Positions 2,421 to 64,000 are shown, counted from the first letter of the stretch. The stretch is DNA of 64,000 bases from an uncultured Candidatus Rokubacteria bacterium (GCA_963699775.1 CAVOVE010000003.1:1975-65974), one strand, 5' to 3'. A program made the numbers and translations. Notes: generated by a model from the sequence alone, not told the origin.

Positions 2421-4337
<1,917 letters not shown>

Positions 4338-4341
<4 letters not shown>

Positions 4342-5237: not shown

Positions 5238-5244
5238 GTCACCC

Positions 5245-6689: not shown

Positions 6690-6832
6690 GGCGCGGGCGC
6701 CTCGCCCGCAAGACTACAGAGGCTTTTGCCCAAGAACGCCGGAGTTGATCCCAGGAAACGGGTAGAGGACCCGTTCAGCCGACAAGTACGAAAATTATCG
6801 CGGGCCGCGCAAGTGTTGTAAAGATATTTCAT
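6686..6832 (-). CDS. Putative 48-aa small ORF between rfbB and rfbA
   Basis: GGAGGTGA SD; ATG overlaps the rfbB stop and TGA overlaps the rfbA ATG; lower GC than flanks; no recognisable motif. Confidence 0.35.
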
Positions 6833-10844: not shown

Positions 10845-12859
10845 CTACGTCCCGCCCGTGCGTTCCTGCGATCTGAATTTTCTCGAGTTCATTGTAGAAA
10901 ACAGCCGGTTTGATTGCAAGCAACTCGGCCTCGGCCTGGGTGGTCGGCACGAGCGATGGAGCTTTCTCGGCGAGCGCGGCGCCGCGACCGAACGCCTCCC
11001 GCGCCTCGGGGAGCCTCCCGTGCCGCGCGTAGAACGTCCCGAGGTTGAACCAGCCGCGCAGGTAGTACTCCTCGATGGCGACGGCGCGGCGAAAGGCCGC
11101 CTCGGCCGCGGCGGCGTCCCCCAACTCGTCGGACGAGCAACCCGATCTCGGACAGGACCTGGAACTGGAACGGCGCCAGCTCGGCGGCGTGACGGTAGTG
11201 CGCGAGCGCCGCCTCGAGCCGCTCGCGGCCCGGCGGCTCCCGCCGGGCGAGCGAGGTCATCGCCTGGCCGAGGTTCACCGCGTACTGAAACTGGTTCGGG
11301 TTGAGCTCGGCGGCGTAGTTCAGGTGGTAGAGCGCCTGCTTCAGCGCGCCCGGCGCCGCCCGTCGCCGCGCAGAAACTCCTGAAAATACTGACTCCCGAG
11401 GGCGCGATGGTAGGGGGCGTTGATGAAGTCGATGCGCGCCGCGAGACCGATCAGCCGCGTCGACTCCGCGAGGGGCAGCTCCCGGCGCGGCGCCTCCTCG
11501 AGCGCCCACTTCTCGCGCAGCAGGTTGCGTGGGGCGCCGATGCCGCCGAGATAGTACCAGAAGCCGACGACCGGGCGCGCCGCGGTGAGGGCGAGCACGA
11601 GAGCGATCAGGCCCGCGGTCACGGCGTAGACGGGGCGGACGCGGAAGGAGACGGCGTGCTCCGGCCCGGTGACGCCGTGGAGTCGCAGCCCGGCGGCCAG
11701 CAGCACGAGCAGCAGCGCCGAGGACGGCGTGTGCAGCGGAAAATCGACCGCGGCGTGAACCGCGATCGACGCGGCGGCGGCCAGCAGCGTCGCGACCGGC
11801 CCCCACGCGGCGCGCGGCAGGGCGCGCAGGCGCGCGACGGCGGCCCACGCCAGCAGCGCGACCAGGCCGAGCGCGACCAGGAGGCCGGGAACACCCAGTT
11901 CGGCGCCGGCCTGCAGGTACTCCGAGTGGGCGTTCTCGGCGACGCGGGTGTATTTCGCCCAGTGGGTCTCGATGGGAAAGGCGTAGCGGGTCGAGACGTA
12001 TTCGTACTGACCGAGCCCGATGCCGACCCAGGGGTGGTCGATCATCATCGACCAGGCGCTCTTCCAGATCGCGAGCCGGGTGAAGGCGAAATTGTCCGTC
12101 TGCGGGAGCGACTGCAGCCGTTGGAGCAGCGGGTTGGGAATCGCCAGCAGCGCGACACACGCCGCCGAGAACGCCGCGGCGGCGACTTTCCAGGAACGCA
12201 GCGTGAGCAGCAGCAGCAGCCCGGCGGCCAAAGCCAGGGCGCCGCCGCGCGAGCCGGTGGTCAACAAGGCCGCGAGGAGCAGCGCCCCCTCAGCGGCGGC
12301 GAGCGCTGTGCGCAGCGGGCGGCGGCGGGAGCCGGACGGGGGGAAGATCTGGCCGCCGACGACAAGCAGCAGCGCGGCGGCGAGGAAGCCGGCCAGGAAG
12401 TTCGGGTTGAAAAACAGTACCCGCGGGGCGGTCCCGGCCGAAGCCGATCGCCGCCCCGAGCACGAGCAGCGACTGGAAGCCCGCCTGCGCCCTGACCGCA
12501 CCGAGCGCGAGCGCAAGCCCGGCGAAGCTCGGGTTGAACGACAGATACGCGTACAGCGCGACGTAGCAGGCGATGGCGAGGGATGCCGCCTCGGCCGGGT
12601 GGTAATAGGGCGCGAAGAGCGTGGAAAAGAGCGACCAGAAGACGAGAAACCCGAGCAGCACGTCCAGCGCGTTCAGGCGAAGCTCGCGCCGGGGCGCCCG
12701 CGCCCAGGTTCTCGACCAGAACACCACCAGCGCGAGGATGCCCAGTTTGACGACGAAGGACGGGAACCGGGGAGTTCCCCCCTGGACGAGGGGGACGAGC
12801 AGCAGCAGCGCGGCGGTCAGCCACCAACCAGCCAGCGCGGGGTTCCGATCTGATTCCAC
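10845..12859 (-). CDS. O-antigen ligase family (Wzy_C) membrane protein with C-terminal TPRs; candidate pilin O-oligosaccharyltransferase
   Basis: FFNPNFLAGFL, LLTTGSRGG, RLAIWKSAWSMMIDHPWVGIGLGQY, NAHSEYLQAGAELG, then TPR helices; directly downstream of pilA; frameshifted. Confidence 0.85.
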
Positions 12860-12997
12860 TCAGAGATCGGCGCCTTCGTGGAACATCTCTTTGTCGCCTC
12901 CGGTGAGCTGCCGGATGTCAGCAATTGCGACCATCACGGAATTCCGACGATCGCCACGCGTATCATCAACTCGACGAGGGGAAGCCCCACTGGCGGC

Positions 12998-13041
12998 GAA
13001 ATAAAGAGCAGGGGGCCCCTGATCTCTCAGGAACCCCCTGC
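12998..13041 (-). terminator. Putative rho-independent terminator after pilA
   Basis: Minus strand GCAGGGGG...CCCCCTGC stem followed by TCTTTATTT. Confidence 0.6.
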
Positions 13042-13083
13042 ATCTGCTGATCTCCGGAATCCGGCCGACAGCCGGATGCTATC

Positions 13084-13568
13084 CTAGAATGCGGCGCCTT
13101 CCTTGATGATTTCGTTGGTGGAACTGGTGACGTAGAAAGAGCTGACCGAGGTGTCGCCGTCGAGGTCGCCGATGGCATACATGGACATGCCTTCGCTGGC
13201 GTTCGGATAGTCGCTGCTGGCGGTGGAGCAGGAGGGCGTAATCGTAGTAGAACACGTTCCCTTCGGGGGCGAAGCCGAGGATCGAGAAGCGGGTGCGAGC
13301 TAATCCAGGGCTCCTTATTGGTGATGCCGGCGCGGCCGCCCATCGGCGTCATGGCCTGGTTGCCGACGTAGAAGTCCCACTCGGCGAAGTAGGCCACTTC
13401 GGTGCTCCGGATGGCGCCGAGGTTCGACTTGGCCTCGGAGGTCTTGGCCTTGAGACGGAACTGCAGGAAGTTCGGGATGGCGATGGCCGCCAGAATGCCG
13501 ATGATGGCAACGACGATCATCAGTTCGACCAGGGTGAAGCCTTTCCGGTTCCGGATGCTCTGTAACAT
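13084..13568 (-). CDS. pilA: Type IVa major pilin (about 160 aa, two indels)
   Basis: Class III signal RNRKG|FTLVELMIVVAIIGILAAIAIPNF; rebuilt C-terminus ...RFSILGFAPEG...AIGDLDGD...EIIKEGAAF*. Confidence 0.93.
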
Positions 13569-17206: not shown

Positions 17207-17237
17207 CGCAAACCCTTACCACAAAGGGCACGGCCGT

Positions 17238-41094: not shown

Positions 41095-42645
41095 CCGTCG
41101 TCTCCTTCCGCGTCTCGATCACCGCGACGGTGCGGTTCTCCTTGCGCAGGTACTTCGCCGCCACCGCCTGGATGTCCGCCGGGGTGATCGTCTCGAGCTG
41201 CGCCAGGTGCGTCGTCAGATAGCGCCAGTCGCCGGCCAAGCGTCTCGTAGTAGGCGAGCGTCGAGGCCAGCCCCTCGTTCGACTGGAGGCCGCGGATCAG
41301 GCTCGGCGCGCAGCTGGTTCTTCACCCGCGAGATCTCCTCGGGGGCCGCCGGCTCGTCGGCCAGTCGCGCCAGTTCGGCGTCGATCTCGGCCTCGACCTC
41401 GGCCGCGGTGTGCGGCGCGCGCGGGGTGGCCAGGACCGTGAAGAGGTTCGCGTACCGCCCGCCGGGATAGCCGTTGACCGTGGCGACGCTCACGGCGACC
41501 TGCTTCTCCTCGACGAGGCGCCGGTACAGCCGCGACGTGCGGCCGGTGGTCAGCAGCCCGTCGATCAGATCGAAGACGTAGTCCTCGAAGGTCGGCAGCG
41601 TCGGCTTGTGATACCCGATCATCAGCTCCGGCCGGGCGTCGCTCACGAGCGTGACGCGGCGCTCACCGCTCTGCTCGGGCTCGGGGGTCGCCGTCTCGGC
41701 GGGCAGCGGTTGCGCGGGGATCGGGCCGAAGGCCGCTCGCACCAGAGCGAGGAAGGCGGGCGGGTCCACGTCCCCGACGACGGCGAGCACGGTGTTGTTC
41801 GGGGCGTACCAGGTGCGGAAGAAACGCTCGGCGTCGGGCGCGCGCAGGAAGCCGCACGTCCCCGTCCCAGCCGATGACCGGGCGGCGATAGGGGTGCGCG
41901 ATGAACGCGGAGGCGAAGAACAGCTCCATGAGCTTGCGCGACGGGTCGCTCTCGTAGCTCTGGCGGCGCTCCTCGCGGACCACCTCGCGCTCGGAGTAGA
42001 ACTCGCGCATCACCGGCTCGCGCAGCCGCTCGGACTCGATGCGCGCCCACAGCGGCAGCCGGTTGGCGGGCAGGCTGATCTTGTAGGTGGTGACGTCGAC
42101 GCCGGTGCTGGCGTTGAAATCCTGCGAACCGTTGGCGGTGTAGATCGCGTCGATCTCGTCCTTGACGACGAGCGCGCGCGCCTCCCGCTGCGCCCCGACC
42201 AGGCGGGCTTCGAGGGCGGCGAGCCTCGCCGGGTCGCCGCCGGGGCCCTTGCCGGCGCTCGGCGTCCAGGTCGTCGACGATCGCCTCGATCCGCGCGAGC
42301 AGCGGGCGCTCGGCCGCCCAGTCGCGCGTCCCGAGCGTGCGCGTGCCCTTGAACATCATGTGCTCGAGCAGGTGCGCGAGACCGCTGGCCCCTTCGGCCT
42401 CCTGGGCGGCGCCGACGCGAAACTGCATCGAGAGCGAGACCGTCGGGAGACTGGTGCCGCGGCAGCACGATGACGCGCATCCCGTTGGGGAGCGTCTCCT
42501 CGACGACCCGCGACTCCAGATCGGCCATCTCCCCGGCGCAGGCGACGGTCGCGACCGAGGCGACCAGCCCGACGCAGAGCGCGGCAACCAGCAACCCCGC
42601 GGCGACACGCACCCTGCCCCGACGCGCGAACCCTTTTCTCACCCG
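41084..42645 (-). CDS. M16 family zinc peptidase, catalytic subunit
   Basis: LPNGMRV, GLAHLLEHMMFKGT (HXXEH), FYSEREVVREERR, HPYRRPVIGW; frameshifted. Confidence 0.9.
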
Positions 42646-44597: not shown

Positions 44598-46704
44598 TCA
44601 GGTACCGCGACTGCTGCCAGTGGAACAGCCGACCGAGAGCATCAGCACCAGCAGGGTCAGCCCGACGCACGAGCGCGATCATGCCGAAGATCCTGGAGGC
44701 CTTGTACTGCCAGGGCAGCACGTGCATCCCCATCTGCTTCTCCAGCTCGCCGGAGGCCACGAGCCGCTCGTACTCCAGCGGCCGCTCGTGCTTGAGTTCG
44801 TCCAGGTGCACCCGGCCGGTGAAGATCACGAAGTCCATCGGGAACTTCTCGGGCCGCAGGTGGCTGTTGAAGAAGTGGATCGCGAAGATGAAGCCGGTGG
44901 CGAGGATCGCCTCGTCGGAGTGGATGATCATCGCGATGTTGAAGGCCCACCCCGGCAGCAGCTTCGCCGCGAACGCCGGGAACCAGAGCACGAGCCCCGA
45001 GACCCCGATCATCCCGACTCCCCAGAAGACCGCCCAGTAGTCGAACTTCTCCCAGTACGTGTAGCGGTCGTACTTCGGGCGCGGCCCGAGCGCCGAGGAA
45101 CCACTTGATCGTGCCGATCAGGTCCTCGAGGTCCTTGAGCTGCGGCACCATCGAGCCGGGCCCCCAGAAGAGCCCCTGCTCGCCCCGGAAGATGCGGCGC
45201 AGCAGGCGAGCCGAGGTGCAGCGCGAAGTAGGCGAAGGTCACGACGCCCATCATGCGGTGCACGAAGCCGGCCGTCTCGAAGCCGCCGAGGAACGAGGCG
45301 AGCGTCTTGGCCCACGGCGTGTAGCTGAACTTCAGCGGGATGCCGGTCATCGCCAGCGTCAGGAAGCTGACGATGATCATGAAGTGCAGCGTGCGCTCGA
45401 AGAGGCGGAAGCGCCAGACCATCTTCTCCTCGGTGATCCGCAGCGGCGGCGCCTTCTGCTTCTCCTTGAGCGAGCGGATCAGCCAGAGCAGCGTGTGCAG
45501 GCCGAAGAAGCCGAAGGTGCCGAAGAGCAGCGCCGGTCATCGTGTAGAAGGTGTAGAAGAGGATCGGGTAGTTCGCGCGGTCCTTGTGGTCGCCGTGGGG
45601 CATGTACTTGGTGAAGTTCTCGTTCGCGCGTCGGGTGGCACTTGCGGCAGGTCTGGACCTTGTTCGCGCCGGCCGCGAGCATCGACTTCGGGTCCTGGCT
45701 CCGGCAGGATGTTGTGCGAGCCGTGGCAGTCGCTGCAGCGGGCGACCTTGGCGTAGCCGAGGCTCGTGACCTGCCCGTGGTAGGTCTCGCGGTAGGTGTC
45801 GAGCGGTCGGCGTGGCAGGTGCCGCACTCCTCGAGGTTGTGCAGCTTCCAGTCGTCGCTCGGTGATGCGGACGATCGCTGTGCGAGTGGTGGCAGACGGT
45901 GCAGGTCGGCGCCCCCTTGCCGTTCGGGAGCTTCGCGCCGGAGTCGAGCGCCTTGCCGTGCACGCTCTCGTTGAACTGGTCGAGCACGCCGGTGTGGCAG
46001 CCGCCGCAGGTCGTGCGGATGTTCTCGTAGTTGATCTTGCGACTTCGGGTCGGTGTGCGGCAGGATGTCGTGGGTGCCGTGGCAGTCGTTGCAGACCGCC
46101 GAGACGACGAGGCCGGACTTGAGCAGCGCGCGGCCGTGGACGCTCTGCTTGTAGCGGCTGTAGGCGTCGGCGACCGGGATGTCGTACTTCGCGGCGATGT
46201 TGGCCTTCTTGATCGGTCCAGTTGCCGTGGCAGGTGCCGCAGGTCTCGACCAGGTTCAGCGGGTAGACCATGCGAGCGCGCGTCCTTCGGCGGGAAGATG
46301 TTGTGCATGCCGTGGCAGTCGGGGCAGGAGGCGACGTCCTTGTTGCCGGCCGCCTGCGCCGTGCCGTGGATGCTCTTGGCGTAGACCGCCTGGACCTCGT
46401 CGTGGCACTGCGAGCAGTCGACCTTCGCCAGCGGCGCGTCGTGCGGGACGTCCTTGACGTCGCCGTGGCAGTCGGTGCAGTCCAGGTCGGCGTGCACGGT
46501 CTGATCGAAGAGCTTCTCGTCGACCGTCGGCCCATCCGACCCGTCGTGGCACTCGAAGCAGTCCGTGCGGTCCACGGCGGCGGCCGGCGCGGGCGACGCG
46601 CACCAGGCGAGCGTGAAGAGTGCGACAAGGAGTGCGGTTGACCAGGCGCGAACTCCCGGGGCACTGCGCGCCCCTCGTGCTTCCGAAGCTTTCTGCATCT
46701 GCAT
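44598..46704 (-). CDS. CbcL-like fused multiheme cytochrome c / cytochrome b
   Basis: Signal peptide and 11 CxxCH motifs across frames, followed by a b-type membrane domain (ERTLHF, FVHRMMG, YTYWEKFDYWAVFWG, IHSDEAILA, IHFFNSHLRPEKFPMD). Confidence 0.9.
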
Positions 46705-46955
46705 CCCCCCTGCGTGCGTATGCCTCAGTTGCGCTGCCAACGAGCGAATCATCGCGAAAAACGCCGAAATCGTTGCACATTCAAACATTACCTGTCAAGA
46801 ATGAAAATGATTTCCTTTTTATTTTCTGGGATTACACGCTCGTGCTAACCTTGACGCCACCGCCCGGGGACGCATTCAAACATTAGCCCCCTCTCTCCGC
46901 TCATCGCCGCAGACCTGCGAGTCGGGCACTCGCCGACTTCCCACAGACGAGCGCC

Positions 46956-46985
46956 TTGACGACCCGTGCCCTCCCCGCCTACCAT
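46956..46985 (+). promoter_or_regulatory. Putative sigma70 promoter of galU
   Basis: TTGACG-N18-TACCAT. Confidence 0.45.
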
Positions 46986-47045
46986 GGGGCATCGCGGCGC
47001 GTCACGGCCGGCGCAGCGCCGCACGGGTCCAAGGAGGAGGGTTTC

Positions 47046-47933
47046 ATGACCATCGTAAAGGCCGTCTTTCCCGTCGGCGGGCTCGGGACGCGGTTTCTCC
47101 CCGCGACCAAGGCCTCCCCGAAGGAGATGCTCCCGCTCGTCGACAAGCCGCTGATCCAGTACGTGGTCGAGGAGGCGCACCTCTCGGGGATCACCGATGC
47201 GATCTTCGTGACCGGCCGCGGCAAGCGCGCCATCGAGGACCACTTCGACACCATCTTCGAACTCGAGCACACCCTCGACAAGAAGGGCAACCGCAAGCTG
47301 CTCGAGGAGGTCCGCAAGATCACGCGGCTGGCGAACTTCTCCTACGTGCGCCAGGGCGAGCCTCTCGGCCTCGGCCACGCCATCCTCTGCGCCCGCAATC
47401 TCGTCGGCAACGACCCGTTCGCCGTCCTGCTCGGCGACGACATCATCCGCTCCCGGGTGCCCGCGCTCAAGCAGCTGCTGCGGGCCTTCGCGAAGCACCG
47501 CGGCGCCGTGCTCGCGGTTCAGCGCGTGGCGGGCCCGGGCATCAGCGACTACGGCGTCATCAAGGGCACGCGCATCGACGAGCGCACCTTCCTGGTCACC
47601 GACCTGGTCGAGAAGCCCTCCCCCGCCGAGGCCCCCTCGGACCTGGCGGTGATCGGGCGCTACATCCTGACGCCGGCCATCTTCCGCTATCTCGACGAGA
47701 CCAAACCGGGGCGCGGGGGCGAGATCCAGCTGACCGACGCGCTGCGCAAGATGTCCCAGGACTACCCGCTGTACGCCTACCTCTTCGAGGGCACGCGCTA
47801 CGACGCGGGCAACAAGCTCGGCTTTCTGCAGGCCACCGTGGAGTTCGCGCTGGCGAACCCCGACCTCGGCCCCCCCTTTCGCAAGTACCTGGCGACGCTG
47901 CTCGGGCAGAAGCTCGCGGAAGAAACGCCTGAT
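47046..47933 (+). CDS. galU: UTP--glucose-1-phosphate uridylyltransferase
   Basis: KAVFPVGGLGTRFLPATKASPKEMLP, PLGLGHA, LVEKP, GEIQLTDA; AGGAGG SD; end approximate. Confidence 0.95.
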
Positions 47934-48369
47934 GGGACTGCCGGAGGACGCTGCTCGAGTCTTCGCTGCGGCTGCTCGCGGCCCGGCGGCCGGCGCACCC
48001 GGCGATCGAGGAGACGGAATTCCCCGCGATCGACGTCTTCGAGACCCCCTGCGACGTGGTCATCGAGGCCGAACTGCCGGGGGTCGACCCCGCGGCCATC
48101 GCCGTGATCGCCAGCGAGGGTCTGATCGTGATCGAGGGCGCCAAGGAGGAGCAGCCCGGCCCGGGGCGGGTGAACTTCCTCTGCATGGAGCGCAGCTTCG
48201 GGGTCTTCCGGCGGGTGGTGCTCCCCGGCGCGGCGGTGGACATCTCGCGCGCGACCGCGGTCTGCCGGGACGGCATCCTGCAGGTGCGGGTGCCGAAAGT
48301 CGATGAAAAACGAGGGCGGGTCCGGGTCGTCCCGGTGATCGCCGCGCCGAGCGGGGAGAGGAGCGAGCC

Positions 48370-48373
<4 letters not shown>
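47932..48373 (+). CDS. Hsp20/alpha-crystallin small heat shock protein
   Basis: [37 protein letters not shown]. Confidence 0.88.
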
Positions 48374-50757
<2,384 letters not shown>

Positions 50758-50814
50758 CGTGCAAGACAGGAGGGGTTGGTGGACCCCTCCCCTCCAAGGA
50801 ACGACCACGCCATC

Positions 50815-50841: not shown

Positions 50842-52202
<1,361 letters not shown>

Positions 52203-52222
52203 GCCGCCAGTGTACCGCGCTT

Positions 52223-53752
52223 TCACGCCCGAGGGGACGCACGACGCGCCCGGACACCCCTTCCCCCGTCCGGCAAGGGGCGAAGTCGGATTTCCCGCGT
52301 TGCCGGTCGGGCGGCCTCGGGGAAGAGCACCGTGAAGGTCGTCCCGGCGCCGGGCGCCGTCTCGACGTCGATCGTCGCGCCCATCTCCTGCGGCGGTCCG
52401 CCTGCAGATCGCGAGACCGAGCCCGGTGCCGCGGCTGCCCTTGCCGGCGGTCGCGAACGGCTCGAAGAGGTGCTCGCGCGACCTCGGGCGCGATGCCGGG
52501 GCCGTCGTCGCTCACGCTGACGCCGGCGGCGCGTCCCGGGGGTCCGGGCGGAAGCTCGCGAGCGTCAGCGTCCCGCGCCCGGCGAGCGCCTGCGCACCGT
52601 TGAGCGCGAGGTTGAGGATCATCTGGCGGATGCGGTGCAGGTCGGCGCGCACGGTCGGGAGCCCGTCGGCGAGATCGAGCCGCAGGGCGACGCCGGTGAG
52701 GTCGGGTTGGTGGTCAGGTAGCGCGCCAGGTCGCGCAGCAGCGCGTTGAGATCGACGTCGCTCCAGTCCAGCCGCGGCGGGCGGGCGTACTCCAGCAGAT
52801 CGAGCAGGATGCGGTTGATCCGCGCCACCTCGCGGTCGGTCCGCACCAGGTACTCCCGGGCTTCCGCCGGCGACAACCCGCCGTCGCGCAGCATCGCCAG
52901 GTAGCCGGTGACCGCACCGAGCGGGTTGCCGACTTCGTGCGCGACGCCGGCCGCAACCGCCCCGACGGCGGCCAGCCGTTCGGAGCGCACCAGTTCGGCC
53001 TCCTTCGCCACGAGCCCGGCGTGCAATGCACGCAGCTCCTCGATGCGAGCCCGGTCCAGCTCGCGCCCCTCGCGCAGCCGCTGCCGCATCGTCTCGTAGG
53101 CCGCGGCGAGATCCCCCAGCTCGTCGGGACGCCCCTGGTCGACAGGCTGCTCGAGGTTCCCCAAGGCGATGCGATCGCTCGCCGCGACCAGCCGCCGGAT
53201 CGGCCCGACGACCATCAGCGAGACCAGCAGATAGAGGAAGAGTACGAGGATCAGCGCGGTGATCACCAGTTGCACGAGCACCTGGAGGTGCGCGTACGCG
53301 GCCCGGCGCCCGCCGTCCCGCGAAGAGAAGAACACCATCAGGCTGGCGGCAGTGGCGCCGCGGGGCTGCACCGTGAAGTTCCAGACGCTGGCGTTTGCGG
53401 GCGGCTGGCAGGTGGCGCCTGTCCCCGAGGTGGCGATCGCGCGCCCGGACTCGTCGCAGAGTGCCATCGCCTGCACGCTCGGGTCCTGCACCAGCGAATC
53501 GAGCAGTTCGGAGACCGCTGCCAGCCGAGGTCCGGGAGACGGCGGGGCGCCGCCGAGCAGCGGCCCGAGGGCCTTCTCGACGGCGGTCGCAATCGCGCGA
53601 CCGCGCCCCTGCTGCTCGGCCGTCAGGAACGCCGCGTTCTGGCGCAGCAGCATCAGCCCGAGGAGCCAGAGCGCCAACGCGACTAGGGCGAGCACGTTCA
53701 GGATCAGCCGTTCGCGGATGCCGAATCGGCGCTGCACCCCGGCAACAATCAT
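52223..53752 (-). CDS. HAMP-containing sensor histidine kinase (PilS-like context)
   Basis: Two TMs, [28 protein letters not shown]. Confidence 0.9.
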
Positions 53753-53808: not shown

Positions 53809-55260
53809 TCAGCGCAGCCGGTGCCAGGCCAGCTTCGTGCCGTAGCCGAAGCCGCCCAGCGCGAGGTTGATCGCGTCGCAGCTGTACTTGGCGCTCCAGT
53901 TGCCGGTGACGTCGCCGTCGACGCTGACGCCGCCGGTGCTGATCACGGCACCGACTGTCGTCGCGTTGCCGTTGACCCGCAGGATCTTGTCCGCGATGAT
54001 GACGCCGGTGAAGGAGCAGTTGCCGTTCATCCGGAACTCCGCCGGTGAGTAGGAGACATCATACTGCGGCTTGCTCGAGTCGGCGCGCGCGTCATAAAAC
54101 GCCGAGCCGGTGTTGTAAACCGGGCTCGTCGGGGACGAGGCATCGTAGACGTCGGGGTTGAAGTTCTCGTTGTGCACGACCAGAATTCCGTATCCGCTGC
54201 CGCCGTTGACGTGGAGGTCGCCCTGCTGCCACATGTAACTCGGGTTGACCGCCGTGCCGGGCATGCCGGCGAGCGTCGTCGTCGGTGTGAACATCCCGTT
54301 GAAATCAGCCTGGGAAATCCCAAGGACGTCCCACGGATTCTTGCCGAGCGGCCGCTTGCCCGGCGCGGTCGGGTCGAAGTTGGTGTTGCACGGGGTCGTG
54401 GCGGAGAATGACCCCTTCGGGTTGCCGCCGGGGATCCCGCCCGTGGTGCAGGCCGGGTAGCTGCGGCCAACGTCGACGGTGACCGCCGGCAGGTCCGAGC
54501 AGGTCCCCGAAGCGGCGGTCCCGGCCGCGTTGAAGTTGTGGCCGTCCACGTAGCCGCTGCCGCCGACGCTCACGTCGCCGCGCGCGGTGATCGCCCCCTC
54601 GACCTGGATGTCGATCTTGTTGCGAGCGATGTCCAGCGCGATCTGCCGGAAGCTCGAAGCCGTCGCTGGGGCGGTCCCGTAGTAGCCGGTCGCATCGATC
54701 TCGATCACCGGGTAGCCCTGGCCCGAACTCAGGTAGAGCGAGTCCGGGAAGTTGAAGCAGTTGTCGGCGCCGCTGCACTTGTTGTAGAGCACGATGTCGC
54801 CCGGGCAGGTATTTGCCGGGGACTGCACCGGCGGGCCGGGGTCGTTGTCTGTGTACCCGCTGGACTCGCCGGGGTCGGTGCAGTCGCCGTCGCCGTTGAC
54901 GTCGCGCCACTCGCGCTTGAAGCGCATGGTCACGTTGTAGGTGCCGCCGCTGCCCAAGGTGCGGGTCAGCGTCTGCGTCCAGTTCGGGTTGGCGGTGTAG
55001 GGATTGGGGAGCGACGCCTGGTTCTCGCGCACCCAGGTCATCCCGGCGGCCAGCCCGCCGTCGGCGGCCTGCAGCGCGATGCTGGCGTAGTTCTGGTTCT
55101 TGGCCAGGGAGCGCTCGAGGAAGGAGTTGATCAGCGTCGAGGCCGCGACGGTCGAGAGCACGAGCATGACCACCATGACCATCACGAGGAGGAATCCGCC
55201 CTCGTCGGCGTGGATCCGGCTCCGCCGTAGTGCTCTGCCTGCTTTCATCTGCGCATTCAT
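53809..55260 (-). CDS. PilX-like minor pilin (about 480 aa)
   Basis: EGG|FLLVMVMVVMLVL lacking E5, as is typical of PilX/GspK; ALQAADGGL; C-terminal FTGVIIA repeats. Confidence 0.8.
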   Translation of the reverse strand: MNAQMKAGRALRRSRIHADEGGFLLVMVMVVMLVLSTVAASTLINSFLERSLAKNQNYASIALQAADGGLAAGMTWVRENQASLPNPYTANPNWTQTLTRTLGSGGTYNVTMRFKREWRDVNGDGDCTDPGESSGYTDNDPGPPVQSPANTCPGDIVLYNKCSGADNCFNFPDSLYLSSGQGYPVIEIDATGYYGTAPATASSFRQIALDIARNKIDIQVEGAITARGDVSVGGSGYVDGHNFNAAGTAASGTCSDLPAVTVDVGRSYPACTTGGIPGGNPKGSFSATTPCNTNFDPTAPGKRPLGKNPWDVLGISQADFNGMFTPTTTLAGMPGTAVNPSYMWQQGDLHVNGGSGYGILVVHNENFNPDVYDASSPTSPVYNTGSAFYDARADSSKPQYDVSYSPAEFRMNGNCSFTGVIIADKILRVNGNATTVGAVISTGGVSVDGDVTGNWSAKYSCDAINLALGGFGYGTKLAWHRLR

Positions 55261-55283
55261 CGCCTTTCTCCTCGTCCTGGATG

Positions 55284-58200
55284 CTATGGCACGCAGGTTT
55301 CGGAGACCGCGGTTGGCATCGGGCTCCTGCTGGTGCAACTGGCCGTGGAGTAGGTCTGCACGACCCGGTACGAGTAGGGCTTGTCCGCCAGGAAGGCGCC
55401 CATGTCGATGGTGGCGCTCCATTTGTTGACGTTCGCGCCGTTGCCGTGGCCCAACCCGCTGACCACCACCGCGCCGGGCGTGGTGCAGGTGTAGGGGGAC
55501 GCCCCGAGGCACACCCCGACCGGCGGCGCCGCCGGCGTGCACCCCGACGTGTCGCAGGCGAAGAACTCGAAGCCCATCGCGACCCCGGCCGGCGTGGAGG
55601 GGACGGTAGTGTTCGAGGTCCAATCCAAAATGGCCTTGGTCGTCACCGGACCATTTTTGTCAGTGCACTTCCCATCGGGCGACACGCTGAGGCTCGTCGG
55701 AGCGGCCGGGACTGGGAAGCCCACGCAGGGGTTGTTGGTGTAGGTCTCATTCACCGGACCGTGCCAGGGACTGTAGTTCTTTGAGGCGCAGAAGTCGTAG
55801 GCCCGGACCTGATAGTAGTACTCTTGCGTCCCGGCGGTGCCGATGACGTGCGTGACCGTCGTCGCGGTGCCGGAGGTCGGCGACTCGTCGATCGCCGCCC
55901 ACGACCCGCCCGCGCCGACCTTGTACTGGATCTCGTACCCGGCCAGGTCGTTGGGCAGCGGGCTGGGCGCGGCCCAGGTCAGGGTGACGCCGGCGTCGTC
56001 CGCCGCGGTCACGGTCAGGGCGGTCGGGGCGTTGGGCAGGGTGCTGGTACAGGGGTCGAAGCTCTCACCAACCGCGCTCGACCAGCCGCCGTAGTTCGGT
56101 GTCACGCAGGAGTCGAACGCCCGCACCTGGTAGAAGTACGCGTGCGTCCCGGCGTCGGTCACCAGGTCCTTGACCGTCGTCGCGCCCCCGTAGAGCGGCG
56201 AGCGGCTGATCGGCGCCCAGGCACCGCCGGCGCCGTCCTTGCGCTCGATCTCGTACCCGGCCAGATCGCCCTGGTCGGGCGAGGGCGCCGACCAGGAGAG
56301 GGTGACCCCCGTACCGTCCGACCCGGTGACGCCGAGGCCGGTGACTACCCCGGGGACGGTGCCGCAGGGGCTCAGGAATTGCTCGGTGTAGGTGTTGGAT
56401 TTTGCGCTTTCATTCGGCGTGCTGCACGTGTCGATCACGGTGACCTGGTAGCGGTATTCCGAGGTGCCGATGTCTCCCGCGATCGAGGTGTCGGTGTAGG
56501 TGGACGTCGAGGAGTCGGTCGACGTGATCCAGCCGAACGCGCCGCCGTCGCGGCTGCGGTAGACCCGGTAGCCGCCGCCGTCCTGGAAGATCTCGCCGTT
56601 GGTGTTGTGCGTCGGCGGCGCCCAGGTGGCAGCGTCACGGTCGTCCCGTTCGTGCTGCCCGCGAGCGTCGCCGGGTTCGGAGTCTCGTCACAGGGGTTGT
56701 TGACAATCGGCTCGGTGTAGGTGTTCGACGGCACGCTGATGTTTTTCCCCGGAGACGAGCAACTGTCGAACGCCTTGACGTAGAAGGAGTACTTGACGTT
56801 CTTGATGTCGCTGGCGGTGTCGTCTAAATAGGTGAGCGTCCCGGCCCCGACGGTCGAGAGCAGGGTCCAGGAGGCGGCTCCGGCCTGGCGCCAGATCTCG
56901 TAGCCGGCAAGGTCGGTCAGCGGCGCGGTCGACGGGGCGGCGTTCGTCGTCGGCGCGGTCCAGGAGAGCGACACCCGGTCCGGCATCGCCGCGGCGACAC
57001 CGGTGAGGACCGGCGGGTTCGGCGTGTTGTTGCAGGGGCCTTCCGCGGAGTCGGTGTAGATGTCCGAGGGCAGGCTCTCCCGCGGGACCGGCAGGCAGCG
57101 GTCGATCGCCGTCACGTGGTACTGGTAGCTGATGGTGTCGATGTTCGGGACCCCCGTGTCGGTGAGCGTCAGGGTCGTCGGGTCCTCGATCAGGCCGTTG
57201 GCGAGCAGCGACCACCCGGCACCGCTGTTGCGGTAGATCTTGTAGCCTTTGGCGTCGTTGTAGGTCGTCCCCGACGAATTCGTTGTCGGCGCCGTCCAGG
57301 TTAGCTTCACGCTTCCACCCGAAGTGACGCCGGCGAGGGTCGGCGGCGGGTTCGGCGTCGTCTGGCAGGGGTTCTCGGGGAGCTGATAATACTGAAAGGC
57401 GCCGCTGCCGATCTCCGGCTCGCGGTCGAAATTCCCCTGACTGTCGACGGCGACGATGAAGTACCAGATGTTGCTGCCGGGGTGGTCGGGGATCCGCTGG
57501 TCCGTCGGGGAGACCGGCGTGCGCCACTGGTTGCCGGCGACGTGCTCGAGGTCGATGCGGGTGTAGGGGGGGAGGATCGGGAACACCGCGTTGGCGGCGA
57601 CCGGGGGCGGCGCGGTCAGCGTGCGGGCGTTGTCGACGTAATAATAGAGCCGCACGGCGCTGAGCCCGGCGCCGGAGGAATCGAAGACGTTCGTGTAGAC
57701 CGTGAGCTTCGACCCGCCGCCGATAGTCACGGCGTTGAGAACATTGCCCCCCTGGTCGCCGGGGACCGGCCAGGCGCGGGTCCCCGCGACAGGCTTGTCC
57801 TGCGTCGTGCCGTAGGCGTAGGGACCGAGCGGCGCGTACACCGACCCGACCACGCCGCAGCCGTCGGTCTTGGTCGACTCGTTCCGGTAGGTCAGCGCGA
57901 AATCGAGGGTCTGTTGCCGCGAGTCGGTCTCAAGCGTGACGGTGCCGTCGGCGTTCTTGAAGAGCGTCACGAACGGGATCCGGGTGTCCAAGGCGGTGAA
58001 GCTGGAGTTGGAGAGCATCACCGAGCTACTGGTGTAGCCGCGCGTCAACGGGAGGACTGTGTCCTGCCAGCCGATCGTCACCGCCGTCGTTTCGCCGTCG
58101 CCAAACGCCACCTTCTGCAGGTAGGCCTGCGGATTCTCCCAGGAAGCGGTGAACTGCTGCAGTGTCAGATTGGAGGCGGCGGTGTTCTTGGTCCAGAGGG

Positions 58201-60583
58201 TGACCGTGTTGTGCAGGAAAGTCGGCGAGATCGAGGTCAAACCGTCCACGATGCTCTCGGTGAAGGGGAGCGCCGAGGAGCTCGCCTTGAGGTACCCCGT
58301 CACAATCTGCGGGGTGATTTCGTCGCGGTCGATCTTCCCGACGGAGAGATTGTTGACCGTGGTCGCGGCGACGTTGTCGTCAGGATTGTTGGACGCCCGC
58401 TCGGTCGCGGTGACGTTGGCGCGGCGCTCGTAGTAGCAGTCCGCGGCCTCGATGCGGTAAGAGTAGGTGGCGCCATTTTCGACCGGGAAGGATCCGGTCC
58501 CGGTGTTCGTGATGTCGTTGAACCAGGTCGGCGTCCCCTGGGTCAGCTCGGTGCCGCCGCTGGCGCAAGTCAGGTCCTCGCAGCGCCAGACGTGGAAACC
58601 CGCGAGGTCGCGGTAGGTGGTGACGTCGTAGTCGTCCCAAGAGAGCCGGATGCCGTCGGTTGCGGAGCAACCCCCGGTCTGGATGGGCGACGAGGGCGCG
58701 GGCGGCGCATCGTAGCAGGTCTCGCCGACGTTGCAGTCCCCGCACTGCGTCCCCTCGGAAATCGAATACTGGGTGACTTCGCTGTGGTTGAGGCACTGGT
58801 CGAAGGACACGGCCAGGAAGTAGTAGGTCACCGGGTCGCAGGCGGCAGTCCCGGCGTCGACGGCCGCCTGGTTCGTGCAAGCTTGCAGTTCGGGGACTGT
58901 GTAGCTTGGGTCGCCCCTGGTCGGGTCGGAACTGTTGAAGTTGATCGGCGGCCAGATCGTGCCGGTCCCGGTGAACGTCCCGAGCGGACCCGGGAACGGA
59001 GCGCTGTCCGGGATCGGCAGGCCCCCGGACACTACGCCCGTCACGGGGTCCATCGCGGGGTAGCCGACCGAGCTGTACCAGATCTTCGAATGCGTGAAAT
59101 CCTCGTCGGTGCCAATCTTCACCGGGTTCTTCAGATTGAGGATGATTCTCTTGTAGCCGGGTTTCGCGACCAGGACGGGACTGGTCGGCTTGACGGCGTC
59201 GGTGGGCACCCCACTGACGGTGGCGAACTGCAGCGCGGCCACCGGGATCTGGGTGTCGCAGGCGATCGCGGCCAGCTTGTAGTAGTAGGTTGTGCAGCCG
59301 AGGAGGCCGGTGTCGGTGAAGGTCACCTTGCTCGCGTCGAGGGTGGTGTAGTCCGCGATGCGGTTGCCGGTCACCGGCGTGTCGTCCGGCGTGAATGTGT
59401 CGGAGACGGCGCTCCGGTAGAGCCGGTAGCCCCGCAGTTCAACGGCCGGAGATGCGGTCCAGGTCAGCGTGACGCTGTTGTCTCCCGGGGTGGCGGTCAA
59501 CCCGGTCGGGGCGGCCGGTGGCAGCGTTGTCACCGTGGTGTCCGTGCCGTAAATCGCCCACTCGGTGGCGTCGCGCGGGCTGGTCGCGGGGTTGCCGCTG
59601 GCCTCGGCGGAGAGACCGGGGCTGATGTTGCCGGACTTGTCGTAGGCGGAAATCGCGAAGTAGTACTTCGGTTGGGGAGTGATACCGGTGATCGAGGAGT
59701 CCAGCCCGGTCACGGTTTGGTACTCGGACTGTCCCGCGGTCTTCGGCGGCCGCGCGATGACCAGACGCTCGGAGTAGGCGCCGGGTGCAAGACCGTAGAA
59801 GATGGTGTACCCTTCGAGATCGGGCTCGGTGTTGGCGTTCCAGCGCAGTTGCAGCGTGCCGCACTGCCCGGGGTCCCAGGACACCAGGCCGTCCGGAGTC
59901 GCGGGAGGCGTCACGTCCGTGGGCGTCGCCGCGACTCCGACGTTGCGCGCGCGCACATCCGCGGTGAGCGTGAGCTGCGGCGTCTTTTTGGTGTTCGGGT
60001 CCGGACGGCTGGCGTTGCAGGTCAGCGTCGCGCGCACGGCCCGGATGTCCTTGACGTCGGCGCCATCCCAGGCAGCGTTGTCGGTGGAGAAGTACGAGAA
60101 GGACAGGTTGGCCACGTTTGAAGCCAGAGTCTGGGCGGTGACGTTGATGGGATCGTAGCCGCCGCCGGGGACGTGCCGTTGGAACTCCCGCACGAGATTG
60201 CCTCCAACCAGCTTGAAGGTGACCTGCGTGTTGTTGTCGTAGCCCGCGACGTAGGGGCCCTCGTTACGGGCATTGTCGTCGTAGTATTCAAAGGTGACGG
60301 TGTTGCCCGCCGCGACGCTGATCGGGCGTTGCTGGTCCCGGGCCCGGTAGCCGGCCAGGGTCAACTCGCTCTTGACCTGATCCATCGCAAAATTGCAGCT
60401 GGTCTGCATATCGTTGTAGATTTTCTGCGACAGCCCGCTTTTCTGCGTGTAGTTGAAAACGGCGTAGATGCCGAGGCCGACGATGACCGCCACACCGATC
60501 GCGGTCATCAGTTCCACGAGGGAGTAGCCCAGTTGGTTGTGCAGGCGAGTGCAGCGGTTTATTGTCCGCCGATCGGAATTCAT
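55284..60583 (-). CDS. Giant PilW-like minor pilin (about 1,770 aa) with about 10 fibronectin type III-like repeats
   Basis: QLG|YSLVELMTAIGV, ELTLAGY and a PilW-like globular domain, then repeated LTW...GY.IYR...Y.Y.V.A.D. The 1382-aa and 384-aa ORFs join through an indel near 56630. Confidence 0.85.
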
Positions 60584-60625
60584 CGCTCTCCCTCCCCCTC
60601 CGCAGTTTCCCGCTCGTTCAGTAGT

Positions 60626-61069
60626 TCAGAATCTCGAGACAACGCTCGAGACGAGGATCGTCTTTGGGGTGCCCCGCGCGTCGGTGAACGACAGGACGAC
60701 GTTGACGTCGGCTTGGTTGCTCGAAGTGAGCGCAGTGCCGGCCGGCAGCGGCGACACGGTGCGCACACGGGTGAATCTGCCGTCGATGGTGGAGGTGCAG
60801 GTGGCGACAGTGCCCGCCACCGTGCAGGCCTCCGCGAGCGCGGCGTTCGCCAGTTGTAGGTTGTTGTAGGCGGTATTCCGGCTTTTCTCGACGGCCTCCT
60901 CCGCGAGTTGATTGGCCCGCGTGATGCGCCGGGAAAGATTCGTGTTGCGCGAGGCGAAGACGAAGACCGCCCCCAGCTGCCCGACGATGTAGGCCAGGAA
61001 CAACATTGCGATCATGCTCTCGACGAGCGTGAATCCGGCGGCGCCGCTGATTTTCCCCTTGAGTGTCAT
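60626..61069 (-). CDS. PilV-like minor pilin
   Basis: AAG|FTLVESMIAM; 147 aa. Confidence 0.85.
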   Translation of the reverse strand: MTLKGKISGAAGFTLVESMIAMLFLAYIVGQLGAVFVFASRNTNLSRRITRANQLAEEAVEKSRNTAYNNLQLANAALAEACTVAGTVATCTSTIDGRFTRVRTVSPLPAGTALTSSNQADVNVVLSFTDARGTPKTILVSSVVSRF

Positions 61070-61073
61070 GGCG

Positions 61074-61571
61074 TCACTCCTGCACCCAGGAACCGCCGCT
61101 CCAGCGCCGAACGAACATCCGACCCGTCGGTTCGACGACGATCTGCTTGCGGTGGCTGCTATCCGGCGTGCGGACTTCGATCACGGCCTGGCCGTTGAGC
61201 GGGACGTTCACCTGGCCATTCCCCATGACAATGAGCGTCTGCGCGAGATTGAAGCCGGCGGCGTTGACCAGATCGGAGCCGGAAAGGCTCGTGGCGCCCA
61301 AGGTCTGCCAGGCGCCGGCCTGGAACTTCGACGGGGTGTAGCTGTCGTTCGCAAGGTCGAACTGGATCCGGTAGTCCGTGCTCTTCGAGATCGCACGCAC
61401 GCGCGCCAGCGCGATCTCGTTCGAGAGAACCATGACGTTGTTGTAGAGCCGGATCCGCGGCCTGAGCCCGATGAAGGAGGGGATCCCGATCGCCGCCATG
61501 ATGCCAATGATGGCCACGACGATCAGCAGTTCGACCAATGTGTACCCCGCTTGTGCTCTCGACCCGGTCAT
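61074..61571 (-). CDS. FimT/FimU (GspH)-like minor pilin
   Basis: QAG|YTLVELLIVVAIIGIMAAIGIP, ARVRAI, VEPTGR; GGAGG SD. Confidence 0.88.
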   Translation of the reverse strand: MTGSRAQAGYTLVELLIVVAIIGIMAAIGIPSFIGLRPRIRLYNNVMVLSNEIALARVRAISKSTDYRIQFDLANDSYTPSKFQAGAWQTLGATSLSGSDLVNAAGFNLAQTLIVMGNGQVNVPLNGQAVIEVRTPDSSHRKQIVVEPTGRMFVRRWSGGSWVQE

Positions 61572-61595
61572 CTGTCCACCTCCGGTCCCTTGGTA

Positions 61596-61611
61596 AGCAC
61601 CAATCATGCCA
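61596..61611 (-). promoter_or_regulatory. sigma54 (-24/-12) promoter of the minor pilin operon
   Basis: TGGCATGATTGGTGCT (GG-N10-GC), 25 bp upstream of the fimT ATG. Confidence 0.75.
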
Positions 61612-62320: not shown

Positions 62321-62560
62321 ATGCGCACAACACTCATCATACCAGATGCTTTGATGCAGAGAGTCAGCCGGCTCTCCGGTGAGGCCTCGAAGACGAGGGC
62401 CGTTGTTGCCGCCATGGAGACCTACGTGAAGCTCAAGAGTCGCGAAGAACTGCTCGCTCTCCGCGGTAAGATACGCCTCAACTACGATTGGGAGCGCCGC
62501 GAGGAAGAGGAATTGAGCTTGCAGCGGGAGCGGGAGGCCCTCCTTGAAGGGCGCGGGTAG
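62321..62560 (+). CDS. vapB: VapB-family antitoxin
   Basis: MRTTLIIPDALM...SKTRAVVAAM; AGGAGG SD; TTGACT...TATATT promoter upstream. Confidence 0.85.
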   Translation: MRTTLIIPDALMQRVSRLSGEASKTRAVVAAMETYVKLKSREELLALRGKIRLNYDWERREEEELSLQREREALLEGRG

Positions 62561-63047
62561 GAAGAGCGGGGCGTCGACCGCCGGCGAGTTCAGCCGGGGA
62601 GCGGAAAAATTGGCGGCCTATCTTCCGGGGACGCGTTCTGTCGCCGACGCGTCCGGGGAATCAGTGGCGGGTGTCCTGCCGGACACGTGTGCCTGGATCG
62701 ACTTTTTCGCCGGGAAAACGACCGCAGTGGCAAACCTCGTGGCGGTTGCCCTGCGAAATGCAACCGTCTTCACCTGCGGCCCGGTCCTCTCGGAATTGCT
62801 TCAGGGTACGCGCGGCGACCGAGACCGGCAGTCTGTACTGGACGCCCACCGCGCGCTCGAGTACGCGGAGGCCACGCCGGCGGTCTGGGTCAGGACCGGG
62901 GTTCTCGCGGCCGATCTCCGGCGCTCCGGCACGACCGTCCCGCTCTCGGACCTGCTGATCGCGGCAATCGCCATAGAGCAGCGCCTCGAGATCATCACCG
63001 CGGACAGCCATTTCGGGCTCATTCCCGGGGTGCGGGTTCAGGGGTAG
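62544..63047 (+). CDS. vapC: VapC PIN-domain toxin
   Basis: VLPDTCAWIDF, VLSELLQG, PLSDLLIAA, TADSHF. Confidence 0.9.
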   Translation: MKGAGRKSGASTAGEFSRGAEKLAAYLPGTRSVADASGESVAGVLPDTCAWIDFFAGKTTAVANLVAVALRNATVFTCGPVLSELLQGTRGDRDRQSVLDAHRALEYAEATPAVWVRTGVLAADLRRSGTTVPLSDLLIAAIAIEQRLEIITADSHFGLIPGVRVQG

Positions 63048-63112
63048 GCACCATTGCTGCTCCGGGAAATGGGTAAGGACATCCCCGTGTATCCGAGGTA
63101 TCATCAATCGTC

Positions 63113-63343
63113 ATGACTGAAATGGACATTGAGATGCGGGAAGGGTTCGAGCGGCTCGTCGCGAGCTGCCGCGACCAGTGTCTCTGGTTCCTGCGCGAGG
63201 ATTATTGCCCGACCGATCCGCAAGAGATGCGGCGGGTGCTCGAGTACATCCGCCGCCACGGTGACCGCGAGTCCTTCCGCGCCGCTTCACAATTGATGCA
63301 ATGGCTCTCACTGACTTCCAGCGGACAGTCTGCCGCCTCATAG
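63113..63343 (+). CDS. Small protein, probable antitoxin partner of the downstream nucleotidyltransferase
   Basis: 76 aa (CRDQCLWFLREDY...LEYIRRHGD) overlapping the downstream gene. Confidence 0.65.
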   Translation: MTEMDIEMREGFERLVASCRDQCLWFLREDYCPTDPQEMRRVLEYIRRHGDRESFRAASQLMQWLSLTSSGQSAAS

Positions 63344-64000
63344 CCGCCAACCGCGTTGAACGTGGCGAAAGTTACGTCGCGGGGGGCACCGCGCTCAATC
63401 TGCTTGCCGGTGGGACTCGGATCTCGCGCGACATCGATATCTTTCACGACACGAACGCGGCTCTCGATGCTGCGTGGGCCAACGATCGCGCTTTGCTCGC
63501 GGCCAACGGGTACGACATTCGCCCCTTGCGCGAGCGGCCCGCCTATGTCGAGGCCATTGTCGCGAAAGGGGGCGACAGCGTGCTCCTGGAGTGGACACGC
63601 GACAGCGCCTACCGGTTTTTCCCGCTCGTTCCGCACGAGGACCTCGGGCTCGCCCTGCACCCCTTCGACCTGGCCACCAACAAGGTGCTGGCCCTTGTGG
63701 GCAGGCTCGAGATCAGGGACTGGCTCGACGTGCTCACGTGTCACGCGCGGATCCAGCCTCTCGGCTATCTCGCCTGGGCCGCGTGCGGCAAAGATCCAGG
63801 GTTCAGCCCCGCCGCGATCCTCGAACAGGCCGGGCGATCCGGACGCTACACACAGTGCGAATTGGACGGACTCGCTTTCGCCGGGCCGCCACCGGAGCTT
63901 GCGGCAGCCGCCCGCGACTGGCACGCCATGCTCGATCAGGCGCGAGAGATCGTCGGGCTTCTGCCGGCGGACGAGGCCGGGAAATGCGTCCTCGACCGGA
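63301..64000 (+). CDS. AbiEii-like nucleotidyltransferase (type IV TA toxin), runs off the window
   Basis: Manual translation: MALTDFQRTVCRLIA...YVAGGTALN...RISRDIDIF...DLATNKVLALVGRLEIRDWLD. Confidence 0.8.
   Translation, partial: MALTDFQRTVCRLIAANRVERGESYVAGGTALNLLAGGTRISRDIDIFHDTNAALDAAWANDRALLAANGYDIRPLRERPAYVEAIVAKGGDSVLLEWTRDSAYRFFPLVPHEDLGLALHPFDLATNKVLALVGRLEIRDWLDVLTCHARIQPLGYLAWAACGKDPGFSPAAILEQAGRSGRYTQCELDGLAFAGPPPELAAAARDWHAMLDQAREIVGLLPADEAGKCVLDR

Follow-up and report, generated by a model that had tools for sequence, protein, structure and literature searches.

A conserved giant pilin of the PilW/GspJ class in a minor-pilin operon of an uncultured Rokubacteria bacterium

The sequence analysed here, referred to as the window, is a stretch of 64,000 nucleotides (nt) from an uncultured Candidatus Rokubacteria bacterium (GCA_963699775.1, CAVOVE010000003.1:1975-65974) and belongs to a 3.6-Mb genome (G000). 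At positions 53809 to 61611 it carries a cluster of minor-pilin genes, the third of which encodes a real and conserved giant pilin of the PilW/GspJ class. Read from 5' to 3', the cluster consists of a sigma-54 element, a fimT/gspH-like gene, a pilV-like gene, the giant pilin gene and a pilX/gspK-like gene, followed by genes for a histidine kinase and a sigma-54 response regulator. All of the cluster genes are on the minus strand, and the G+C content of the region is 65–69%. The features are listed below; a slash within a signal motif marks the cleavage site.

61611..61596, minus strand: sigma-54 -24/-12 promoter element TGGCATGATTGGTGCT, read from the sequence
61571..61074, minus strand: FimT/GspH-like minor pilin, 165 amino acids (aa) from the ATG at 61571, G/YTLVE, Glu5 present
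61069..60626, minus strand: PilV/GspI-like minor pilin, 147 aa, G/FTLVE
60583..55284, minus strand: giant PilW/GspJ-class modular pilin, about 1765 aa once a frame break is read through
59918..60583, minus strand: pilin module of the giant (residues 1–222), with leader, G/YSLVEL, long alpha1 helix and two beta-sheets
58349..59896, minus strand: fibronectin type III (FN3)-like domains 1–4 (residues ~230–745), from the motif map, a Pfam fn3 match at 358–440 and conservation in the orthologue alignment
57374..58348, minus strand: non-repetitive middle (residues ~745–1070), two divergent beta-sandwich domains
55284..57352, minus strand: FN3-like domains 5–10 (residues ~1078–1765), the third holding the break and the last being a variant
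56625..56629, minus strand: frameshift site, CCACC, 5 nt instead of the expected 3 nt between CTG and TGG
55254..53809, minus strand: PilX/GspK-like capping minor pilin, 481 aa, GGFLLVM, Glu5 absent, large C-terminal part
52230..53752, minus strand: sensor histidine kinase with HAMP and HisKA, its HATPase part broken by several frame changes
50950..52226, minus strand: NtrC-type sigma-54-dependent response regulator with REC, AAA+, lid and HTH, split by frame changes

The order fimT-pilV-pilW-pilX behind a sigma-54 promoter had been put forward in the original prediction for this DNA, and each element was found where it had been placed. The promoter element TGGCATGATTGGTGCT has the GG-N10-GC spacing typical of sigma-54 promoters and is situated 24 nt upstream of GGAGG and the ATG at 61571. 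The pattern TGGCAY-N7-[TG]GC precedes fimT in all nine loci examined, with differing flanks, and its distance to the Gly of the pilin motif is 64–69 nt (100 nt in locus L001). The FimT-like protein matches N_methyl in Pfam (E value 9.1e-8); its best family match is GspH (TIGR01708) with 36.5 bits, under the cut-off of 80. Orthologues of it are present in 11 of 11 related loci with 31–87% identity, as are those of the PilV-like protein (11/11), which has weak matches to PilV (TIGR02523) and ComGE. The PilX-like protein has weak matches to PilX_N, GspK, Bactofilin and DUF2572, and PilX_N is carried by 25 of the 30 Atlas clusters nearest to it; its profile gave no match to PDB sequences at E<=10. 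Among 45 homologues of this protein, 11 are on contigs equal in size to the contig of a giant pilin. FimT, PilV and PilW all have Glu5, whereas PilX lacks it. The kinase gene follows directly, as predicted, with its start at 53752 being 56 nt past the pilX stop. Within the cluster there is neither a PilY1 domain (PF05567) nor a fifth pilin (pilE), which also agrees with the prediction.

With the break read through as X, the giant pilin has 1765 residues and 35 cysteines, i.e., about 8 times the size of a normal pilin and about 190 kDa as calculated from sequence length. Its signal peptide, MNSDRRTINRCTRLHNQLG followed after the cleavage site by YSLVELMTAIGVAVIVGLGIYAVF, is of class III (short polar leader, Glu at +5), and the motif G/YSLVEL was read exactly as it had been reported. 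Both Gly19 and Glu24 are almost invariant across the orthologue alignment (A1). The pilin module was modelled with a predicted local distance difference test (pLDDT) score of 86.6 and includes a helix at residues 22–75 followed by eight strands. The extension past this module comprises about 1540 residues in about 12 cysteine-rich beta-sandwich domains of FN3/immunoglobulin (Ig)-like type. FN3-like domains 1–4 correspond to residues ~230–335, 355–460, 465–620 and 630–745. They are followed by the middle of about 325 residues and by six further FN3-like domains, the same count as had been given. The Pfam analysis proposed with the prediction was borne out in part: fn3 was matched in both frames, although it picks up just three repeats (residues 358–440 and two stretches in frame B), while neither PilW nor N_methyl gave a match for the window's protein at E<=0.01. 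N_methyl is matched by its relatives. Since the protein joins a pilin module to domains that are not specific to type IV filaments, it is a modular pilin as defined by Raynaud et al. 2021 (PMC8179133).

The model of the middle region is all-beta (pLDDT 87.8; predicted TM score 0.85). Foldseek returned generic tandem Ig-like matches only (TM<=0.27). A wide VIA-align search matched the second half to Ig, FN3 and E-set domains of unrelated enzymes (Z 8–11); for the first half (residues ~785–920) it gave no clear structural match, from which a new fold does not follow. Enzyme and known-lectin readings of the middle are not justified by these matches, which are to generic beta-sandwiches alone.

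The giant protein is conserved as a continuous chain. Fourteen orthologues (P0002–P0014 and P0016; 1618–1816 aa) align with it over the full length at 40–60% identity, with Cys, Trp and Tyr conserved in each repeat. Six genomes were examined for the phylum, of which G002, G003, G005 and G004 are 99%, 95%, 92% and 88% complete, respectively, and the middle region is present in all but G004 (5/6). A single-protein search of the genome contigs gave no relative among 28 pattern matches; with alignment A1 as the query, two genome loci and seven metagenome loci were recovered. The window shares the order fimT-pilV-giant-pilX with L002, L023 and L024, the last of which is itself frameshifted. Six further loci (L001, L003, L004, L006, L007 and L008) have fimT-pilV-giant on contigs that end before the pilX position. 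Whole-protein relatives are labelled Rokuibacteriota, with one orthologue from Candidatus Methylomirabilia; relatives found through the pilin module or at 25–28% identity are labelled as metagenome-assembled genomes of Nitrospirota and Deltaproteobacteria. Beyond the first FN3 domain, giant relatives carry Big_7, BNR, BACON_2, GH85_C, MAM-like and F5/8 type C modules. The annotation of such proteins currently reads 'prepilin-type cleavage/methylation domain protein', 'PulJ', 'PilA', 'PilE' or 'hypothetical'.

Assignment to the J class is based on predicted structure, relatives and gene position. By predicted structure, the GspJ/PilW fold of residues 1–222 is clear. Foldseek, with model residues 1–225 as the query, gave 26 matches at E<=0.001. 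Those listed were all XcpW, EpsJ, GspJ or Thermus TTHA1219 (E values 1.9e-8 to 2.3e-4; TM by target 0.51–0.68), and the next match was unrelated (E value 8e-3). Against PDB sequences, matches of the module's profile to other pilins were confined to their N-terminal helix (best E value 0.01). Against 1.84 billion representatives, the same profile retrieved 13,273 proteins at E<=0.001, with 36 at E<=1e-30. Among the best 150 of these matches, 74 are ordinary pilins of 180–329 aa and 57 have at least 1000 aa, up to 3653; the normal-sized pilins were retrieved at E values of about 1e-20 to 1e-26. When 20 normal-sized matches were scanned, 7 exceeded the Pfam cut-off for PilW (PF16074) and none matched T2SSJ at E<=0.001. 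One giant relative has a weak T2SSJ match (20.4 bits). The gene is third in an H-I-J-K order in the window, L002, L023 and L024.

The modelling of complexes had been suggested with the prediction. Three chains (PilV, the PilW module and PilX) were modelled with the hydrophobic helices removed, on alignments made for this analysis, together with three controls. The ipSAE interface score was 0.78, compared with 0.00 for the best control; of 157 solved complexes, 116 attained that mark, as did 2 of 215 mismatched pairs. The three runs agreed in at least 92% of contacts, and partner pLDDT was at least 87. In the model the PilW module contacts both PilV and the C-terminus of PilX, whose residues 473–479 are placed against PilW residues 79 and 213–221. 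Thus, the linker to the first FN3 domain is predicted to exit the module beside PilX. Because the GspIJK and XcpVWX trimers have already been solved, the model may draw on memory of them, and the score speaks for likeness to such trimers rather than for binding.

PilY1, the usual companion of such minor pilins in the original prediction, was searched for at several levels. PF05567 was absent from the open reading frames (ORFs) beside the cluster in four genomes, from the other pilin loci of the window's genome, and from every locus with enough flank. A six-frame search at E<=1 detected the domain in none of the six genomes of the phylum, three of them at least 90% complete. The positive control, a Ralstonia megaplasmid, was detected with an E value of 3.2e-39 (134 bits). 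All six genomes exceed the cut-offs for PilT (TIGR01420), PilQ (TIGR02515) and the prepilin peptidase (PF01478, Peptidase_A24), which in the window's genome is at C15:853455-853838. The PilT-family genes of this genome and its PilA-like pilin are as follows.

C15:659270, C4:99146, C4:100262, C15:1421968, C1:238795 and C15:769022 (G000): six PilT-family ATPase genes, TIGR01420 equivalog
12966..13568 of the window, minus strand: PilA-like major pilin, 40 kb from the cluster

Six retraction-type motor genes are unusually many for 3.6 Mb, and the relatives have similar numbers. We infer that the giant-PilW operon is served by this PilT/PilQ/PilA machine.

In the reading that we favour with moderate confidence, the giant pilin serves a type IVa pilus as a tether or adhesin displayed on the tip, with PilV-PilW-PilX priming the pilus and FimT acting as adapter. 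Prepilin peptidase would cut the protein after Gly19. The PilW module would pair with PilV, and PilX, which lacks Glu5 and has a C-terminal segment of its own, would cap the PilV-PilW-PilX trimer, while FimT would join this tip complex to the PilA filament. The complex would prime assembly and exit via the PilQ secretin on the pilus tip, with domains 2–3 nm wide presumably passing the secretin serially. The beta-sandwich chain would leave the PilW module beside PilX and hang off the tip as a flexible tether. An FN3 domain is about 3.5–4 nm long, so that about 12 domains would give a length of about 40–50 nm. Such a tether would provide reach and probably bears the binding surface. Regulation would proceed via the sigma-54 promoter and, in some genomes, the adjacent two-component system. 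The original prediction had the adhesin built into a pilin and replacing PilY1. The absence of PilY1 agrees with this; however, since the K subunit would complete itself in cis, PilX probably takes PilY1's assembly role and the adhesin role alone is left for the giant PilW. Tip location, secretin passage, the adhesin role and a ligand are all matters that we infer.

Several points weigh against this reading. The window's protein has no match to PilW (PF16074) or T2SSJ (PF11612) at E<=0.01 in Pfam and NCBIfam. Foldseek and VIA-align searches of the middle gave no sign of a lectin, a vWA domain or any other recognisable binding module, and the chain could therefore be a spacer only. The genome is 79% complete, a very divergent PilY1-like protein would escape a search with PF05567, and the kinase and regulator are badly broken in the present assembly.

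A rather unlikely alternative is that the cluster provides the tip set of a type II secretion system (T2SS)-like or other non-retractile type IV filament, in which a giant GspJ would act in the periplasm or at the secretin, e.g., as a plug, a substrate-recruiting arm or a periplasm-spanning ruler. The solved matches of the module are all T2SS GspJ but for one family, which counts for this alternative, as do the GspH match of FimT noted above (36.5 bits) and the weak GspK match of PilX. The genome also has T2SS-like parts (T2SSG, T2SSF, T2SSE with MshEN, and a secretin with GspD N0 next to T2SSM_b/PilN), and PilY1 is not required at T2SS tips (Ellison et al. 2026; PMC13533445). However, the T2SS-like loci carry their own pseudopilin genes, and PilT and PilQ equivalogs are present together with a PilA-like pilin. 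PilW structures are scarce in the PDB, and GspJ matches would be expected either way, whereas the scan of the 20 normal-sized relatives favoured PilW over T2SSJ (7 versus 0). Moreover, a cysteine-rich chain of 1540 residues, composed of beta-sandwiches of extracellular type, fits surface display better.

The size of the protein depends on the frame break, located within the 'VTL.W.AP' motif of an FN3-like domain. Past this point frame A provides 65 residues of arginine- and proline-rich nonsense, while frame B carries on the FN3 motif. The closest orthologue, P0002 (60% identity), is uninterrupted at the site ('...VSVTLAWVPPTHDTNGE') and has one residue opposite the window's five bases; the frame B stretch has 58% identity to its residues 1318–1735. 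In the contig from short-read run X4, 2 nt are missing at 56627, and in that from run X2, 2 nt are missing at 56628; both restore the frame. The X2 contig is otherwise identical to the window nearby, and the X4 contig, with 18 differences in 337 bases, derives from a relative. The support is thin, as the depth is about 3 from two contigs and both runs come from one sample. In the kinase gene, too, these contigs carry single-base indels relative to the window (at 52273, 52308 and 52391), at the place where the HATPase domain jumps among all three frames. Genes split likewise in the assembly are the kinase and regulator (several times each), LptD (three ORFs), and an M16 peptidase, a secretin and Dus (two each); frame changes are located as follows.

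Window 14977-17231, 41215-42608 and 50950-53752; L019:3304-5365; L020:13883-14813: frame-split genes, with frame changes

Taken together, the full-length orthologues, the contigs lacking the 2 nt, the kinase indels in those contigs and the other split genes make it very probable that the break consists of two extra bases in an indel-prone assembly and that the organism's gene is whole. The original prediction had likewise suspected an indel near 56630. Frame-change density seems to be greatest in widely conserved domains and may reflect mis-polishing with reads from other organisms. Joints and deep cover at 51100–51980 were rejected as evidence for the locus because they derive from conserved sigma-54 AAA+ domains of other organisms. 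A programmed frameshift was rejected as well, as the site has no slippery run and the orthologues and contigs are in frame.

If the frameshift were real, the locus would be a pseudogene or would encode a truncated pilin of 1382 aa, with or without a 384-aa FN3 protein from the GTG at 56438. We consider this improbable. The window's own sequence has the break, the GTG overlaps the stop by 4 nt (56438/56435), and the public contigs have a depth of just about 3 at the site. On the other hand, an FN3 domain would be cut midway and end in the frame A nonsense, the 14 orthologues are continuous, two contigs restore the frame, and many unrelated genes of the assembly are split in the same manner. There is likewise a slim chance that the prepilin-like N-terminus is only an inner-membrane anchor or export handle, with a surface or periplasmic chain that never joins a filament: pilus location and secretin passage of a protein of about 190 kDa are conjectural and many large proteins with N_methyl signals are uncharacterised, yet the module retains the full GspJ fold beyond the helix alone, and the giant is always encoded between pilV and pilX and docks on both in the complex model.

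The tether reading can be compared with several known systems. Raynaud et al. (PMC8179133), who listed 1219 modular pilins in 264 architectures, count FN3 as one of the 15 extra domains encountered most often, and their Dataset S1 includes 12 pilin-FN3 proteins (IPR012902-IPR003961) as well as multi-FN3 forms. The most extreme modular pilin named there has 860 residues; Dataset S1 is without lengths, and larger ones are possible. The same authors explicitly drew the parallel between modular pilins and PilY1. Ellison et al. 2026 (PMC13533445) reported that the last ~10 residues of PilY1 complete the K-subunit sheet in trans, and that systems lacking PilY1 supply the K strand in cis, e.g., GspK and CpaL. 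In cyanobacteria, large beta-solenoid PilX proteins were proposed to cap instead of PilY1 (2026; PMC13759059). The claim of a candidate new tip architecture is therefore not supported in that form: modular pilin-FN3 proteins have been catalogued, tips without PilY1 have been explained, a cis-type PilX system would ordinarily lack PilY1, and the idea of an adhesin borne by a pilin is, according to these sources, already established. What is new relative to the literature found is the J-class carrier in a diderm H-I-J-K set, the size of the pilin and the existence of a multi-phylum family. In the full-text literature, subscription journals not being covered, we found neither a giant PilW/GspJ pilin nor pili of Rokubacteria.

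PilB and PilC of Streptococcus sanguinis also have a pilin module followed by extra modules, which are presented at the filament tip, where Shahin et al. 2023 placed the two proteins together with the I-like PilA. In contrast, they are bimodular proteins of about 50 kDa from a monoderm, whereas here an extension of about 1540 residues is borne by the J subunit, in a diderm that has a secretin and a complete H-I-J-K set. GspJ, XcpW, EpsJ and PilW/TTHA1219 share with the giant the predicted fold of residues 1–222, the third-gene position and the predicted pairing with I and K subunits; however, the known members have about 150–330 residues and no C-terminal extension. As in the systems with a cis-type K subunit that lack PilY1 (GspK, ComZ, cyanobacterial PilX and CpaL), PilX is large (481 aa) and without Glu5, and its extreme C-terminus (473–479) is in the predicted PilW interface, where it may form the added strand. 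A beta-solenoid in PilX is hinted at by the weak Bactofilin and DUF2572 matches only. In those systems the bulk is on the K subunit, whereas here J carries an extension that is far larger. The FimU-PilVWX-PilY1 tip of Pseudomonas and Myxococcus likewise has four core minor pilins in one operon beside a two-component system, and retractile machinery with PilT and PilQ; the present cluster differs in having no PilY1 and no PilE, a sigma-54 promoter and a giant PilW. Large tip minor pilins with exposed variable domains are also known in CofB/TcpB (type IVb) and KilN (Kil/Tad), but these belong to other filament classes and subunit positions and are at most a third to half this size.

Type IV pili have been studied mainly in a few proteobacteria, where the tip adhesin is a separate protein, PilY1. 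More tentatively, and with somewhat less than even confidence, giant J-type pilins might form a distinct multi-phylum class of tip organelle, with one covalent tether of 40–50 nm per pilus, perhaps more than 100 nm in relatives, and lineage-specific distal modules. Under this reading, the jobs of PilY1 would be split in lineages without it, PilX licensing assembly and the giant PilW binding the target, and several sets per genome would represent pili with exchangeable tips. The case described here represents a conserved alternative in uncultured soil and sediment lineages, in which the largest component of the predicted tip is itself a pilin, one far larger than the pilins discussed in the cited literature. 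If the tether is displayed at the tip, its covalent attachment would be a simple means of keeping a large adhesin in place against the force of pilus retraction. The case is also relevant to the cargo capacity of the priming complex and the secretin, and the protein might serve as a natural scaffold for the display of domains on pili. Two pilin-module relatives, P0280 (3653 aa) and P0260 (2347 aa), contain BNR/Asp-box-like stretches; provided that they are real, no pilin in that literature comes near them in size.

The giant had been treated as the PilW of the organism, a view that is not upheld, as the genome contains other minor-pilin sets. A second, paralogous set at C15:1169700-1176230 of the genome (L021:3698-10228, minus strand) encodes a PilV-like protein, a shorter PilW-FN3 giant and a PilX-like protein. 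This giant is colinear with window residues 19–87, 221–446, 585–651 and 659–909, with 25–34% identity spread over three frames, and the set is riddled with frame changes in the assembly. Accordingly, the genome has at least two giant-PilW sets. A third set at C15:1428200-1431100 (L022:7196-10133, minus strand) comprises normal-sized FimT-like and PilW-like proteins and a 347-aa protein similar at its C-terminus to the PilX of the window (31% over 130 aa). With at least three minor-pilin sets in the genome, the giant set is just one among several alternatives for the tip. In Myxococcus, one genome has been described to encode four interchangeable tip sets for Kil pili, with a large and variable pilin (PMC12075869).

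The surroundings of the cluster differ among loci. Window positions 48370–50757 and 62544–63999 are syntenic with L002:877-6060, whose giant has 40% identity, and the shared flanks consist of a Lon protease gene at one end and, at the opposite end, PIN and AbiEii toxin-antitoxin-type genes; this synteny indicates that the cluster is old and vertically kept in the lineage. Downstream of pilX, the window has the kinase and regulator on the same strand, L002 has a convergent, intact sigma-54 regulator and a CHASE4/PAS kinase, and L023 and L024 have multihaem cytochromes. Past the regulator of the window the genes converge, with Lon and a nucleotidyltransferase on the plus strand. Two ORFs read as large downstream genes, 47596..50808 and 46845..47498 (both minus strand), were rejected because they are antisense to Lon and the nucleotidyltransferase, and a 1254-aa ORF after pilX in L002 was likewise rejected, as a kinase is encoded there on the opposite strand.

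Multihaem c-type cytochromes (Paired_CXXCH, MtrC/MtrF-like) are encoded at L023:13471-15639, at L024:1270-4802 (same strand as pilX) and at 45118–46788 of the window, about 4 kb beyond the regulator. A link of giant-PilW pili to extracellular electron transfer or mineral attachment is possible. Elsewhere in the window, a protein of the Wzy_C/O-antigen-ligase family (11341..12516, minus strand) is encoded directly after the PilA-like gene, with dTDP-sugar and GDP-mannose genes nearby (351–7912), a layout of PilA-like and Wzy_C genes that is reminiscent of TfpO-type pilin glycosylation.

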